From an uncultured Candidatus Saccharibacteria bacterium (GTDB lineage: Bacteria > Patescibacteriota > Minisyncoccia > 2-02-FULL-40-12 > GWA2-44-9), in assembly GCA_964436165.1 (NCBI GenBank), contig CAYTBY010000004.1, positions 1 to 58,796 of the forward strand: a DNA stretch of 58,796 bases, read 5' to 3'. The first letter of the stretch is position 1; every line of letters begins with the position of its first letter. Below the pieces are notes generated by a model. The model was given only the letters and a program-made list of their open reading frames with translations, was not told the origin of the DNA and searched no databases. This document shows, one piece after another, positions 4,322 through 28,867 of this stretch. A program made the translations under genes and the position numbers.

Positions 4322-6118
4322 ATGAATAAATATTCTCTCGATTTAATAGCCCTAATTATCGTGGCCGTGGCTTTAGTTCTGGCCATAACCAGCGTCTGGA
4401 ATGATACGCCGATAGTTGATGAGATACCCCACATCGGAGCCGGTTATTCTTATGTCGCCAAGCTCGACCATCGTTTGAATCCTGAGCACCCTCCCTTAGC
4501 CAAAGATTTAGCCGGTTTATCCTTAAAAATATACGGCATAAATGACGGCCCGGCTTTTGAAAGCCGTTTTTGGCAAAAAGATATAAACGGTCAATGGGAA
4601 TTCGGCCGAAAACTAATATTTAACTCCGGCAATGACCCGATGAGAGTGAGCCGGTTTGCCAAAATGCCGATGTTAATTTTCTTCATAATCTCGGCGATTA
4701 TAGTTTTTGCCTGGGCCAGACAAATATCCGGCTATTTTGCCGCCTCAATGGCTCTGTTCCTATTTGCCCTCTCGCCCACTGTCCTTGCTCATGCAAGATT
4801 TGTAACTACCGATGTCCCGGCGCTTTTCGGAGTGCTTCTATCGTCTTATTTTTTCATCCACTATCTTAAGAATAAGAACAAAAAAAATCTTGCTGCAGCC
4901 GGCATTGCTTTTGGCATCGCCGAACTAACAAAGTTTTCTTTATTTTTATTAGTCCCGTTTTTTTTGGCCCTTTCTATTATTTATGCTCTTTTGAATTTTA
5001 AAGAAAAAAAGATACTACATACTACATACTACATACTACATACTATTCTTATCATTGTCATCGGCTACGTTTTTGTCGTCTGGCCGGTTTATGTCCTCCA
5101 CACCTGGAATTATCCGCCTGAGCTTCAGCACCAGCATACAGAAAATATGCTAAGCACTTATGGCACACGTTCAATCGCTGAAACAGTTATTTATCTATCC
5201 GATAAGCCGATCATTCGGGGTTTGGCTGAATATGGCCTGGGGCTTTTGATGGTTACCCAGCGCTCTGTCGGCGGTAATACCACTTACTTTATGGGTGAAA
5301 TTCGCAACTGGGCCTGGCCCCAATATTTTCCCATTGTTTACTTCATCAAAGAACCTCTCTCATTTTGGCTTTTGTTAACAATCGCATTTTTATACTTTGG
5401 AGCCAAAATTAAAATTACAAATTACAAATTACAAATTACAAAAATTCGAGATTGGTCTCGCAATAACTTCGAAAAATTATTCATGTTAGCCTGGATCCTT
5501 CTTTACTGGTTTGTCAGCATCAGATCAAATCTAAATATCGGCGTCCGCCACCTGATGCCCGTCTATGGATTTACGTTTATACTTTTAGCCGGTGTACTAG
5601 TTAAAATAACTACTTTAATCAATTCGAAAAAGATCCTTACTACTTACTACTTACTACTTACTACTCTCTTCGGATGGTACTTATATGAAAACTTATCCGT
5701 TTACCCCTACTATCTAACCTATTTTAACCAAGTTGCTGGCGGACCTTCGGGAGGTTACAGGTATGTCGTTGACTCTAATTTGGATTGGGGGCAGGACCTG
5801 AAACGTTTAACCGATTGGGTTGAAAATCCGCCAGCTGGCGGAAATATTAATAAAATAAGCTTGGACTATTTCGGCTGGTCAGATCAGACATATTTCTTGA
5901 AAGAAAAGCTTGTTTGGATATCATCTGGAAAATATAAAAATGCCAATGAGTTTCTTCTGGATAATCCGGACGGCGGATATATCGCCGTCTCAGCCAGTTT
6001 CTACATGGGTTCATTTGAAAAACCAGAAACATCTTATGCTTGGCTTGAAAACTATAAACCCGTAACCGTCATCGGGAACAGTATTTTTGTCTGGTATATA
6101 TCTCCACTTCTTCGCTAA
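4322..6118 (+). CDS. GT-C fold membrane glycosyltransferase (PMT-like)
   Basis: DEIPH, NPEHPPLAK, DSNLDWGQD motifs; polytopic. Confidence 0.85.
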   Translation: MNKYSLDLIALIIVAVALVLAITSVWNDTPIVDEIPHIGAGYSYVAKLDHRLNPEHPPLAKDLAGLSLKIYGINDGPAFESRFWQKDINGQWEFGRKLIFNSGNDPMRVSRFAKMPMLIFFIISAIIVFAWARQISGYFAASMALFLFALSPTVLAHARFVTTDVPALFGVLLSSYFFIHYLKNKNKKNLAAAGIAFGIAELTKFSLFLLVPFFLALSIIYALLNFKEKKILHTTYYILHTILIIVIGYVFVVWPVYVLHTWNYPPELQHQHTENMLSTYGTRSIAETVIYLSDKPIIRGLAEYGLGLLMVTQRSVGGNTTYFMGEIRNWAWPQYFPIVYFIKEPLSFWLLLTIAFLYFGAKIKITNYKLQITKIRDWSRNNFEKLFMLAWILLYWFVSIRSNLNIGVRHLMPVYGFTFILLAGVLVKITTLINSKKILTTYYLLLTTLFGWYLYENLSVYPYYLTYFNQVAGGPSGGYRYVVDSNLDWGQDLKRLTDWVENPPAGGNINKISLDYFGWSDQTYFLKEKLVWISSGKYKNANEFLLDNPDGGYIAVSASFYMGSFEKPETSYAWLENYKPVTVIGNSIFVWYISPLLR

Positions 6119-6139
6119 AAGCTTCGAAGTGCACAGCTC

Positions 6140-6690
6140 TAAAATAAAACGACCCTCGGATCCACCGCAACTTATGTGCGTAGAAACCGAGGGTAGCAAA
6201 CTGGCTTTAATTTCAAAGACTCGTGCCAGCAAATACAGTCAAGGCTCTGCCATCTGCCTTGAGGATCGGGGTTGTCCCCGATTAGGTGGCCAGCGACAAC
6301 ACCCATCAAGGTCAGGGAGCGACCGAGTTCATCCCGATCCGTTACTCCCCATAACAGCTGTCGCGGCCATTTCGACGCAAGAACTGCCGACCAACTATGA
6401 GTCCCTGACCCACAGCTCTAATTAGGTCTTTGATCCGCGCAGTTCCTGCAATTTGATTAGCCCAAACCCTTCAACTTAGCTCAGGGTAAAGAGCTCGAAG
6501 AAGCCAATAAACAAGAAACTTACTTTTACGTAGAGATCCCGAAGACATGTTTATAGTCTTTATTTACAATCTTTTAAGGCCTAGTTTATCTTACTTGAAT
6601 GCCTAGATTTGTAGAGTTTTATTGGCTTTTCCGAGCCCTCTGGCCAGCTGAACTGGCCTAAAGACTCGTTTTGATAAGGTACTTATTATT
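6140..6690 (-). ncRNA. Candidate large structured non-coding RNA (~550 nt)
   Basis: Consensus promoter at 6697-6725, no minus-strand ORF, many helices, terminal hairpin 6152-6194 followed by a U-rich tract. Confidence 0.55.
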
Positions 6691-6696
6691 ACTTCC

Positions 6697-6725
6697 AGTA
6701 TAGCAAATCCCACTATAAAAGTCAA
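6697..6725 (-). promoter_or_regulatory. Sigma70-type promoter TTGACT-N17-TATACT
   Basis: Reverse complement reads ttgact tttatagtgggatttgc tatact. Confidence 0.75.
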
Positions 6726-6772
6726 GTAGCCCAGCCCGAGATCGCGGAAAATTAAACATAAGCAAGGGAAAT

Positions 6773-7591
6773 TTATCTGAGTTTCAGATTTATCACCAGA
6801 TCCCCTGGCGGTTGGCCTTCTTTCCCGGTATTGCCGCCTTTTGGAATAACAACCGAATAATTGTTTTCAAGATATTCAGGAATTCTTATTTCCAGTTTCC
6901 TTTTCGTTTTTACTCTGCCCGAACCAGAGCAAATACGACATTCTTTTTCCGGCAGTTTTCTTTTGCCGTGGCATTTCGGACAAATTCCGATTCTCGTAAA
7001 GACGCCGAAGGCGCTCTTGGTTGTCTGCCTAACCTGGCCGGCTCCGCCGCAGGTTCCGCAATTGATCAGCTTGTATCCCTTTTCCACGCCACCGCCATCA
7101 CATGATTCGCACTTATCCAGAACCGAATATTCAAAAATTTTTGTAGTTCCCAGATCCTTTTTACCAATATGAGCTTCTAGGTAAATATCCTCACCTTTAG
7201 CTGGCTCTTCCTGATATGCCGGCCGAGCGTAGCCTCCGCCGCCCATCATATCGGAAAAGGCCTCAAAAATATCTTCGAATCCTCCCCCGCTTCGTCCTCC
7301 CCGAAATCCGCCGAATATATCAGAAAAATCAAAATCTTGTCCTCCATAGGCGGATCCGCCTCCGGCGGAAAAAGCACCATCGTTATAGGCAGAACCAAAA
7401 TTGTCATAGCTCGAACGCTTTCTGGGGTCAGATAAAACCTGATAGGCCTCGTTAACCTCTTTGAATTTCGCCTCATTCCCGCCCTGCTTGTCGGGATGAT
7501 ATTGATGGGCCATCTTGCGGTAAGCCTTCTTAACCTCCTCTTCGGACGCGGTTCTTGGTATGCCTAATATTTGATAATAGTCGTGTGGCAT
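6773..7591 (-). CDS. dnaJ: DnaJ chaperone, short form
   Basis: J domain with HPD, G/F region, four CxxCxGxG-type repeats; ends early at [10 protein letters not shown]. Confidence 0.9.
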
Positions 7592-25319: not shown

Positions 25320-27839
25320 CTAACTTTTCCCTGACAGCTTCTCCATCGGCGGAATATACCTCCTTAACAACAATGAATTCGTCACCACCGAGACCGAACT
25401 GAAGGCCATCGCGAATCCGGCGATTTCGGGACGGAGCGTAGCCTGTGAGAAGTTAAAGAATATCTGGCCGAACTGACCCCCTGACTGAGCAATACTCAAA
25501 ACCCATTCTGCCGGCACGCCAAGCGAGGCTTGAGTAAATATCAAATGGGCACCAGCCGCAATAGGAATCGCCACCACATTATATATAAAAGCCCAGAAAA
25601 GATTTTGCCAAACTTTTACGATCGTCCTGCCGGAAAGCTGAATCGCCGTTACAACATCGCGCAGATCATCTTTGACTAAAACAACTTCTCCGGTTTGAAC
25701 AGCAACATCGGTTCCTGAACCGACGGCAATACCAAGATTCGATTGGGCTAAGGCCGGCGAATCATTTATACCATCACCAACCATTGCCACAGTTCTCCCC
25801 TCTTCCTGTAATTTTTTAATGACCTCGACTTTCTGACTTGGCAAAACCTTTGCAAGTACCCTATCAATTCCGACCTCTCTGGCTATGGCTTCGGCGGTCT
25901 TGGCATTGTCACCCGTTATCATCACGATTTCTTTTTTCATTTTCTTGAGTGCTTGAATGGCTTCTTTAGCAAAAGGCTTCAAGGTGTCCGCCATAGCGAT
26001 TATAGCGACTGGTTTCCAACCTGCCCCGACACCATTCGGGTCGTCGGGGGCGCCATTCTGATTCATTGCCAAGAATACAACTGTCTTAGCTTCGTTCTGT
26101 AATTTCTCAAAAGTGCCTGAATGCTCCTCAACATTAATTCCTAAATTTTTCATAAAGCCGTCGTTACCCAAAGCCACAATAGAACCGGCAACATTGCCCT
26201 GCACCCCAAATCCGGCAACGGCTTTGAATTCCTTAACTTCCGGTAACTCGCCGATTTCGGCTTTGCCTTTTTCAATGACTGCCCTAGCCAGAGGATGTTC
26301 TGAACCAACCTCAACTGCTGCCGCGAGTTTAATGGCCTCCTTAACGTCAAATCCACCCAAAGGAACAAGATCGGTTACAACCGGCTTGCCGACAGTAAGA
26401 GTGCCGGTTTTATCAAAAGCAACGGCATTGATTCTGTATGCCTTCTCTAAGGCCTCACCACCCTTTAAAATTATCCCGAACTTAGCCGCTCTACCGATAC
26501 CGACAATAAGAGCCGTTGGCGTAGCAAGACCCATTGCACAAGGACAAGAGATCACAAGTACAGCAATCATTCTTATTAATCCCGCCCTGAACGGCAAAGC
26601 GGCAAAGAAATACCAGCCGACAAAAGTTAGAACTGACAGCACAACAACTGCCGGCACAAATGATTCGCTCACTTTATCAACTAGGTCTTGAATTGGCGCT
26701 TTGCGGGCTTGAGCTTCTTCAACCATCGCCACTATCTGATAAAGCAATGTCTCTTTGCCAACCTTAGTTGCCTTAAATTTGAATAATCCTTCCTGGTTAA
26801 CGGTGGCGCCTATTACCTGATCGCCAACGACTCGTTTAACTGGAAATGACTCACCGGTAACAACTTTTTCATCAATATGTGTTTCTCCTTCAACAACAGT
26901 TCCGTCAACAGGAATTTTTTCTCCAGGACGAACAACGATAATTTCTCCCTGAACTAATTGGTCAAGAGGAACGGTCACTTCTTTTCCATCGCGAATAACA
27001 TGAGCTTCTTTGGCTTCGAGTTTTAATAATTCCTTAATTGCTTCCGAAGCCCTGCCTTTAGCAACCGCTTCAAAATATCTGCCTAATAATATAAAGAATA
27101 ACAAAGCCGCCGAAGACTCCCAGAAAGGATGATCAATGTTGAAAAATAAGAATCCGATAGCGCTATACAAATATGCGGCTGTAGTCCCAAGAACAACTAA
27201 GACATCCATATTGGCTGAACCGACACGGACAGAAGTAAATGAGTTGCGGTAAAATGGCCAGGCAATAATGAATTGAATAGGAGTTGAAAGTACCCAGTAA
27301 ATATAGTTTAAATCTACCCTGAACGGCGGATTAAAAACATCGATAAAAGTACCTGCGAACCACTTCATCGGCTGAGCAACGAGCCAGAAAATATATCCCG
27401 TAATAAGCGAACCATAGGCCATAAACCCTGAGCCAGAAAGCTGGGGCTGTCTCTGGGCTATAAAATCAAATAGCTCATGGACGTGAGTCACATTGAACAT
27501 GTGAATCGCCATGTAATAAAAGATGATGGGAAAAGCCAGGATAAATGCCGCTCGAACCCGCCGCTTTGCCTCTTCGGTGGCAATTGCCTCTTTTTTCTCT
27601 TCTTCCTCGGCTGAAAAACCTTTTTCACCCGGCCGCATCAAATCATAACCCAGTTTGTTTATTAGCTCGTCTATCTTCTCCAATGTTATCTTGTTCTCAT
27701 CAAACTCAATAACGGTCTTTTCAGACCCATAACTTGTCTTTATAGACACCACGCCCGCCTGCTTGCCCACAAGTTTATCAATTAAAATTGAACAACTTGC
27801 GCAGTGCATTTTCTTAACTTTTAGAACTACTTTAGTCAT
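25320..27839 (-). CDS. copA: Cu(I)-translocating P1B-type ATPase
   Basis: MHCASC, TGES, CPC, DKTGT, SEHP, GDGIND, YN and MAFSS motifs. Confidence 0.93.
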
Positions 27840-27872
27840 ATTTATAAAATTTAATTATTTGTCATGCGGTTC

Positions 27873-28021
27873 GGCAGATATGGATATCCTCTCGCTACCA
27901 TTCGAGCTCCCAGCGAGAGCTCTCATTGCGCTGCTCCCTCGCTCTGTCCCTCGCATATAGGCTCGGGACAACCCTGCCCGCTCGGTCGCAGATGCGCGCT
28001 CCGAGGACATCCATATCTGCC
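27873..28021. repeat. MITE-like structured element, related to 8531-8680
   Basis: 19-nt arms ggcagatatggatatcctc / gaggacatccatatctgcc. Confidence 0.7.
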
Positions 28022-28100
28022 TTACATTCACGATTTTTTAAATCACAATTTTCGAAAATAGCACGGAAAGTATTCATTTTTATATCGCCTTATGTACCTA

Positions 28101-28129
28101 TTGACATTTTAATTTTGATTTGATATACT
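28101..28129 (+). promoter_or_regulatory. Sigma70-type promoter TTGACA-N17-TATACT
   Basis: Near-consensus; points into an ORF-free structured segment. Confidence 0.75.
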
Positions 28130-28134
28130 GACTG

Positions 28135-28237
28135 CAGGCTGGTTTCTGCAGAGACCGTGCCGATAGGTGTCGTGACTCACGAGTCACGGCTGTCCGTAGG
28201 GTCAGTTACCGCAAGGTACCTGACCCTATTTCATTTT
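28135..28237 (+). ncRNA. Candidate small structured RNA (~100 nt)
   Basis: Hairpins cgtgactc-ac-gagtcacg and tagggtcag...ctgacccta followed by a T-rich tract. Confidence 0.45.
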
Positions 28238-28408
28238 ATGGGGTTGAACTTACACTTTCTTTCGGTGGTCGAACCCCCGGCCCTTTAAATGCCGAATGTT
28301 CTGCCCATAGTTCATATCCATCTTGTTTATCTTGGAACTGTGAATACATGTTCAGTATACTAATTTGATTAATTTAATCGGCATTCTAAAGAGCGGGGTC
28401 AGACAACA

Positions 28409-28867
28409 TTACTGTGCTCGTTCGCCTTTTGGCTCACTGCGCTCAGATGGTTGTCTGACTTTAATCACCCCTATCATGTCGAAATGGGTTCGTTTAACTC
28501 CGTCAACTTCTCCTTCTCCGCAGGGAACTGAACAGTAATACGGGAAATCGCCAACCTGGGTTACAACAAATTCAACATTTATCGTGGCATTGGCTGGCAT
28601 TCTTTGTGATACTCCGAATGCGTCAATGGCAATCCCATGGTCATATTCGTCCTCATTAATTATTTCGAGCTTGACTCTATCTCCTCTATCAACCTCGATA
28701 ACTTCCGGCGTCCACCGCCACTCGTCTTTATCAGCTGTTATTGTAAAATTCCTGACCACGCCCGTCTCAACCGGCCTGTCAGCTTCGGACAATAAAACAG
28801 TGCGGTAAAATATCCCGCCTCCGATGATTAAGATTGTGATACCGATTAGAATGAAGTACTTATTCAT
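28409..28867 (-). CDS. Membrane-anchored cupredoxin-domain protein
   Basis: HGIAI, YYCSVPCG...H.DM copper ligands. Confidence 0.88.
   Translation of the reverse strand: MNKYFILIGITILIIGGGIFYRTVLLSEADRPVETGVVRNFTITADKDEWRWTPEVIEVDRGDRVKLEIINEDEYDHGIAIDAFGVSQRMPANATINVEFVVTQVGDFPYYCSVPCGEGEVDGVKRTHFDMIGVIKVRQPSERSEPKGERAQ

Follow-up and report, generated by a model that had tools for sequence, protein, structure and literature searches.

Three groups of described bacterial RNAs come closest to the element analysed here, a candidate minus-strand RNA gene of about 550 nt in a 58,796-nt stretch of DNA (the window, contig C4 of the 1.15-Mb genome G000). 6S RNA (SsrS, RF00013) is alike in having a single-copy, free-standing gene with a strong promoter, a mostly double-stranded form of ~200 nt, a long closing stem and an alternative pairing; unlike it, the RNA studied here has an extra leader and a hairpin, H1, and, in this lineage, a 3′ expansion of ~290 nt. 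ROOL, GOLLD, OLE and the raiA motif, which are all in Rfam 15, resemble it as long, heavily folded non-coding genes that run from promoter to terminator in one lineage, whereas the present RNA is conserved over ~210 nt only and its short forms of ~200 nt are common. The 4.5S/signal recognition particle (SRP) RNA (RF00169, RF01854) is comparable with its minimal form, a hairpin rod of ~105 nt whose internal loops are conserved and whose terminal stem is long; in contrast to SRP RNA, however, it matches neither model, and Ffh and FtsY domains were not found in its genome. The gene would lie within the interval 6119-6772, which sits between two converging genes, and we favour, with moderate confidence, the reading that this gap contains a free-standing minus-strand gene, from about 6690 to 6140 (~550 nt), whose product is a stable, structured RNA belonging to an uncatalogued family.

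The conserved 5′ domain and its two exclusive pairings

The conserved and covarying unit is the 5′ ~210 nt only, which comprises the leader, H1 and a core closed by the P1/P2 duplex. Alignment within the genus was possible for query positions ~134-337 and for short pieces at the ends, and for nothing else. The parts of this domain are located in the window as follows.

6669-6692, minus strand: leader with the GUWCYUUA motif and the predicted 5′ end at ~6690, placed from the position of the −10 box.
6632-6668, minus strand: H1, formed by the 5′ copy (6660-6668) and the 'mid' strand (6632-6640), with a lineage-specific hairpin (6642-6658) in the loop.
6617-6640, minus strand: 5′ strand of the P1/P2 closing duplex, of which 6632-6640 is common to H1.
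6489-6512, minus strand: 3′ strand of the P1/P2 closing duplex, with covariation and ~95% of cells paired.
6569-6608, minus strand: P3 hairpin, taken from the alignments, with AUCU/AGAU and AGGC/GCCU helices and a 4-nt bulge (6573-6576).

Pairing in this domain was evaluated in two alignments, A6, a MAFFT alignment of 37 sequences that was not structure-fitted, and A5, a model-fitted alignment of 38 sequences. In A6, the 21 pairs of P1/P2 were 95.5% paired, with changes on both sides in 16 of the 21, and the whole tested structure was 90.8% paired, compared with 37-54% when the partner was slid by 1-3 columns; the observed pairing or covariation score was reached by none of 500 shuffles. Both-side changes were found in 18 of the 21 P1/P2 pairs in A5. 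The closing stem has a median of 23 pairs (at most 2 mismatches) and measures 19-26 pairs in 53 of 55 sequences, while two sequences of genus g16 fail the count at the outer end. Its inner half is conserved in sequence as well, GCCAGU lying opposite AUUGGY with recurrent G·U wobbles. An earlier annotation made from the letters of the window alone (hereafter the sequence-only reading) had listed a helix at 6493-6511/6618-6636, for which we calculated a duplex energy of −23.6 kcal/mol and which contributes 14 pairs to the minimum free energy (MFE) structure; the homologues that it called for were found, and they covary in P1/P2.

Inside the closing duplex, P3 is built of two short helices with the 4-nt bulge on the 3′ side and is seen from Yanofskybacteria to the minimal forms of ~103 nt, and its loop block (6589-6603) is invariant across close genera. 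A K-turn in P3 was considered and rejected, no tandem G·A being visible by eye. Pairing of the leader with the P3 loop was likewise rejected, as the leader is constant where the loop changes.

H1 arises from a near copy of the P1 3′ strand, which lies upstream of P1 and pairs with the P1 5′ strand. Among 38 homologues, the number of contiguous H1 pairs was at least 6 in 33, at least 7 in 28 and at least 8 in 20, with a mean of 7.26 pairs against 4.92 in shuffles; 2.4% of the shuffle trials gave 8 pairs. One strand serves both H1 and the outer part of P1, which are therefore mutually exclusive. Where this shared strand varies (genus g2, G079 and G014), the 5′ copy and the 3′ strand change along with it, and both H1 and outer P1 are maintained through sequence change. 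Alternative folds had been suggested by the sequence-only reading, and a conserved pair of them does exist in the form of H1 and P1, but the AAAGAC pairing that it proposed, in which either copy of AAAGACTCGT would bind GTCTTT at 6426, is not the conserved one. AAAGACTCGT indeed has exactly two copies in the window, at 6215 and 6660, and GTCTTT is present at 6426 and also at 6556; the pairing of AAAGACTCGT with GTCTTT at 6426 was nevertheless rejected: it is present in this sequence, but the copy at 6215 and its partner are not kept in G001, G002, G005 and G006 (by eye).

At the 5′ end of the domain, the leader motif GUWCYUUA is nearly invariant in alignment A4. A GTTCTTT-like motif also occurs 10-25 nt past other consensus promoters of G000 (on C1, C7, C10, C14 and C26), the leaders of protein genes included.

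Predicted gene boundaries and fold, and the 3′ expansion

The remaining features of the gene lie on either side of the conserved domain.

6720-6725, minus strand: −35 box TTGACT, from a promoter scan; 55 of 60 homologous loci have TTGAC-N16-19-TAnnnT upstream.
6697-6705, minus strand: extended −10 box TGcTATACT, with TG preceding the second hexamer; TGnTAnnnT is present in 48 of 60 homologues.
6459-6495, minus strand: P5/P6, in which the 3′ copy AGCUC (6491-6495) pairs with GGGCU (6459-6463) around a hairpin (6483-6487/6466-6470); present in the MFE structure.
6195-6486, minus strand: GC-rich 3′ expansion (52.7% GC), containing helices listed earlier and the crossing pair.
6140-6194, minus strand: intrinsic terminator, a hairpin (6152-6194) followed by a U-tract, found with our own script.

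Both signals that the sequence-only reading had placed at the ends of the tract are present. The promoter scan located the minus-strand promoter TTGACT-17-TATACT at 6725-6697, with 10 of 12 matches to the consensus, and the 5 of 60 homologues that depart from the TTGAC pattern carry variant −35 boxes. At the other end, the hairpin at 6152-6194 has a predicted energy of −22.4 to −22.5 kcal/mol and a T-run directly after it, while a simple terminator scan reported no terminator for the tract. Equivalents of the hairpin with its T-run were found in G001, G005 and G006, and in G002 by eye in the alignment only. Between these signals, the description of the tract as ORF-free proved loose, as it is overlapped by mechanically called open reading frames (ORFs), one of 73 aa on the minus strand (6011-6232) and one of 112 aa on the plus strand (6087-6425); six local ORFs gave 0 Pfam matches at E<=1. 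The 11-nt word CACAGCTCTAA was confirmed to have exactly two copies in the window, at 6132-6142 and 6411-6421, one of which lies within the RNA and the other just beyond the terminator U-tract.

The 556-nt minus strand has an MFE of −205.2 kcal/mol and a z score of −7.71, and none of 100 shuffles folded as well. Taken separately, the 5′ domain had a z score of −4.4 and the 3′ part one of −4.0, compared with −2.5 for the plus strand of the 3′ part. The GC content also differs along the RNA, at 52.7% in 6195-6486 versus 36.7% in the 5′ domain and 41% in the window. With regard to the two exclusive pairings, the whole-RNA MFE structure picks H1 together with P5 (6491-6495 with 6459-6463), and the full P1 is picked by the whole-RNA centroid and by the isolated 5′ domain. 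Pairings comparable to P5/P6 were seen in relatives by eye, without a formal count.

Every helix listed in the sequence-only reading can form in the sequence. The helix at 6642-6658 has 7 bp, that at 6287-6298/6359-6369 has 11 pairs with one bulge, all of them in the MFE structure, and those at 6266-6282, 6239-6262 and 6201-6229 all form. The helix at 6310-6318/6402-6410 consists of 9 perfect bp with an energy of −16.5 kcal/mol, but it contributes 0 pairs to the nested MFE structure or ensemble, and the 3′ strand of helix 6310-6318 overlaps a rival nested hairpin (GGGGAG/CUCCC). The pseudoknot proposed from these helices is correct in its geometry, as 6310/6402 and 6287/6359 do cross, but it lies in the lineage-specific expansion and has no comparative support. 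For the 'family A element' that had been placed at 6467, comparison of the gap by BLAST with the whole genome gave no repeat, the single match there being a chance one of 14 nt (6461-6474).

These 3′ ~290 nt (6195-6486) are unalignable between species of the genus except for short pieces; they are a fast-evolving, well-folded and lineage-specific expansion. Across the family, the predicted transcripts measure between about 350 and 820 nt. A terminator or the next gene comes shortly after the core in families f2-f4, some f1 genera and other orders, and the short form with a terminator measures ~200 nt, consisting of leader, H1, a core of 103-130 nt and the terminator. Genera g1, g13 and g11 have in common one 3′ hairpin whose loop is of the RAUGGUGGAUWA type. 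At locus L055 (G062), the core is followed on its 3′ side by an A-rich tract in which short units containing CG are repeated; this tract is part of a long hairpin of the 3′ extension. Of the undescribed large structured RNA that had been proposed for this tract, the uncatalogued gene with its promoter and terminator is thus retained, but the conserved unit of ~550 nt is not, as only the 5′ ~210 nt are kept.

Distribution and neighbourhood among relatives

By BLASTN, partial matches were found in 10 further genomes of 61 searched (11 with G000), and BLAST of the gap against its own genome gave a single locus. Three models were then available for the search of relatives: R1, a covariance model of the 5′ domain built from nine sequences; R2, a core model from 37 sequences; and R3, a model from short forms. 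With R1, a single copy of the 5′ domain was detected in each of 43 of the 62 family genomes, which represent 15 of 23 genera and include 32 of the 42 genomes of good quality, and its second 'matches' were the antisense of the same locus. With R2, 59 of 105 order genomes were found to carry the core (f1, 50/61; f2, 1/8; f3, 6/26; f4, 1/9). R3 added 6 genomes in 5 further families among 151 class genomes, a search that scored only ~22 first-look candidates per genome, so that absence is not claimable from it. The short-form core is present in single copy in five genomes of four families (G055, G089, G020, G087 and G224), between which it is 85-87% identical. A mobile foldback repeat resembling a repetitive extragenic palindrome (REP) or a miniature inverted-repeat transposable element (MITE) was rejected, with one locus in G000 and in each of five other genomes.

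The two genes that flank the gap in the window are the following.

4322-6118, plus strand: PMT-type glycosyltransferase gene, convergent on the RNA gene.
6773-7591, minus strand: short dnaJ gene (272 aa), upstream of the RNA gene.

The gap is syntenic in four other genomes of the genus, the PMT gene converging on the element in all four, with a short dnaJ upstream of it in three and murB in G006. Its length within the genus varies from 587 to 1352 nt, and the genus alignment displays a conserved promoter, a conserved 5′ block of ~190 nt, a variable GC-rich middle and a conserved terminator. Upstream genes vary by lineage (among them dnaJ, murB, a gene for an FtsQ-type POTRA protein, GreA). Within the family, the downstream gene is most often a convergent PMT-like gene. 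Beyond the family, neighbouring genes bear no relation to one another (RNase J, Mur ligase, TypA-like GTPase, SecD, RecO, Obg, M23 peptidase and others). These changing neighbours, together with the convergent downstream gene, fit a free-standing, trans-acting gene and argue against a leader.

Some observations on the neighbouring genes were made along the way. A PaaX/Cas2-like ORF lies between dnaJ and the RNA gene in G005 (L002, 834-1364), and another is found downstream of the RNA gene in G068 (L031, 162-773). In the DnaJ of the window, the J domain and the zinc-finger domain are followed by no more than profile positions 27-71 of the 152 of the DnaJ C-terminal domain; the short protein stops right after the zinc-finger/CTD-I region, without the second half of the C-terminal domain (CTD). 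Such a short DnaJ is present in five genomes of the genus (G000, G001, G002, G003 and G005), all sharing a C-terminal motif, the called ORFs being 263-278 aa long in the window, L002, L003, L005 and L045, and the frame in G003 measuring 284 codons from stop to stop.

Known families, competing explanations and a proposed role

The window was compared with the 4227 families of Rfam 15 at the gathering score, and the region 5900-6900 at E<=10. At the gathering score, only tRNA was found in the whole window, which was also the only result of ARAGORN; the matches at E<=10 in 5900-6900 were four chance-level ones (snoRNA, wcaG, PK-repBA and IS128). Nothing was matched in Rfam at nine homologous loci either, and the families that the sequence-only reading had singled out for comparison, ROOL, GOLLD, OLE and raiA among them, gave no match at the locus. 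Its statement that the tract lacks the hallmarks of RNase P RNA, transfer-messenger RNA (tmRNA) and SRP RNA was borne out by the model searches. The RNase P RNA of the genome lies elsewhere (C31, 39 bits, with a clear CR-V-like motif), as does its tmRNA (C9, 134.9 bits), and the small and large bacterial SRP models (RF00169 and RF01854) were unmatched in G000. The RNase P RNA on C31 (~7030-7587, L009) itself scores low, at 39 bits where the gathering score is 100, but keeps CR-I-like and CR-V-like motifs and, close to its 5′ end, a perfect helix of unusual length. Y RNA was also rejected as unlikely, its TROVE partner (Ro/Rsr, PF05731) not being found in the genome.

The SRP pathway was followed further among the relatives. 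None of 62 family genomes and none of 61 order genomes had an RF00169 match. For Ffh, the domains PF02978 and PF00448 were not found in G000, and no open frame there contained a DTAGR or TKxD motif. A search for the SRP54 GTPase in 121 genomes of the phylum gave PF00448 'matches' in 47, all short and weak (best, 25.9 bits), nearly all of which cover about positions 3-60 of 196 (the P-loop), with two short ones elsewhere. A loose regular expression for the SRP domain IV motif matched nothing in the gap and once in the window, ~21 kb away, in a GC-rich stretch at ~27880-28010 on the minus strand, with no Rfam match at E<=1 in 27300-28600. A missing SRP pathway in G000 and its relatives appears to be already known: according to one report, many bacteria of the candidate phyla radiation (CPR) lack two SRP subunits (PMC8080830). 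As for the RNA itself, no description of it was found in listings and abstracts of the literature on structured or 6S RNA or SRP in CPR/Parcubacteria and on Yanofskybacteria, and a term search of PMC10936435 gave no match. The RNA is real and new, with no relative in Rfam, and is one of the orphan structured bacterial RNA genes.

Among the named roles, the best available guess, although an unlikely one, is that the RNA is the 6S-type RNA of the lineage, which would bind the sigma-70 holoenzyme as a promoter mimic and use the H1/P1 exchange as its release rearrangement. The release of 6S RNA involves alternative pairings, and a conserved one is present here; the role is moreover unfilled in a genome that has no RF00013 match at E<=10 anywhere, and the single copy, the near-consensus promoter, the independence from neighbours and the largely rod-like common form of ~200 nt with its long closing stem would all suit it. 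However, 6S similarity is equally missing at E<=10 in the region of the gene, the predicted core is a perfect 23-bp stem with a one-sided junction rather than a large two-sided central bubble, and the closing stem is not formed by the 5′ and 3′ ends of the transcript. It also counts against a 6S role that the genome carries other long-stem elements beside ruvB: two minus-strand elements at C6 9171-9510, between a pilB-like gene and ruvB, each have a perfect closing stem of ~21-23 bp, and a promoter-like TTGACA box is present. The RNA studied here differs from these in locus and sequence and is a separate family. Quite unlikely, too, is the view that the whole ~550 nt are conserved as a single large ornate RNA with a pseudoknot, comparable to ROOL, GOLLD or OLE. 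The far better folding of the whole strand than of its shuffles, the strand-specific structure of the 3′ part, the presence of crossing helices and the RAUGGUGGAUWA-type loop hairpin shared by three genera would be expected of such an RNA, but the restricted genus alignment, the wide range of lengths in the family, the many relatives that have no 3′ part and the missing Rfam match are not, and the 9-bp pseudoknot arm, for which a nested hairpin is a rival, is given a probability of zero by the nested ensemble.

A cis-acting leader of the attenuator or riboswitch-like kind, in which the H1, P1 and P5 alternatives would set read-through into a downstream gene, is in our estimation very unlikely. 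Mutually exclusive helices are typical of expression platforms, and in G088, G020 and G236 an ORF bearing a ribosome binding site starts no more than a few tens of nt from the core, no terminator lying between; yet the next gene is convergent in the window and at most family loci, a strong terminator ends the unit, no alternative helix has a U-run after it, and such downstream genes as there are prove mutually unrelated (obg, secD, typA-like, ABC transporter and membrane proteins). We regard as extremely unlikely that the gap holds no functional RNA and represents mere spacer, the remains of a longer dnaJ 3′ end or a mobile element of the foldback type. A lost 3′ part of dnaJ was conceivable, since the protein stops at profile position 71 of 152 of its C-terminal domain, but the short DnaJ recurs with the same C-terminal motif in five genomes of the genus, no local frame gives a Pfam signal, and there is one copy per genome in G000, G055, G089, G020, G087 and G224, while the promoter, the covariation and the order-wide retention argue for function. 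Several points also weigh against the free-standing structured-RNA gene that we favour. The genomes compared are related and not independent, hence the shuffle controls make the support look stronger than it is; outside the order, the RNA was detected sparsely, in 6 of about 146 genomes, which leaves the breadth of the family uncertain; and the 3′ expansion is without any comparative support. The leader motif also trails other promoters of G000 and may be a general promoter-proximal feature, not one specific to the RNA, and the G088, G020 and G236 homologues, which run straight into the next ORF without a terminator, would suit a leader.

Returning to the free-standing gene, the features described above suggest that its product is a trans-acting, probably protein-bound housekeeping or regulatory RNA. 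It would be transcribed between the two predicted ends, and a stable, protein-bound RNA is suggested because of the single copy, the near-consensus promoter, the duplex with its G·U wobbles, the bulged hairpin and the long uninterrupted stem. The conserved duplex box and the bulged P3 would provide the recognition surface, whereas the long closing duplex could either shield the ends or serve as a maturation site for RNase III. RNase III is encoded on C3, and the P1/P2 duplex is a formal RNase III substrate; any such processing is predicted on this basis. Strand exchange would proceed in the order of synthesis, H1 holding the P1 5′ strand during transcription and being displaced once the 3′ strand has been made. 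A more ambitious proposal, which we consider unlikely, is that the ~105-150-nt core is the RNA subunit of a new housekeeping ribonucleoprotein of Paceibacteria-type CPR, with the H1/P1 exchange as its working switch and with 3′ expansions that add lineage-specific partners. One possibility for such a ribonucleoprotein would be a new RNA-polymerase-sequestering RNA, and another would be a stand-in for a universal function lost by SRP-less cells.

CPR genomes are very small (about 0.4-2 Mb among those compared here), yet this RNA gene is kept in single copy across the order. Its single-copy retention across the order and its enlargement in the window therefore point to a role needed by the cell. 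The closing duplex, the mutually exclusive helices and the rapidly evolving GC-rich appendage provide a natural series in which the growth of structured RNAs can be followed, and the ~60 homologues, with their coordinates and models, give targets for transcript mapping and protein pull-downs in the few relatives that can be cultivated.

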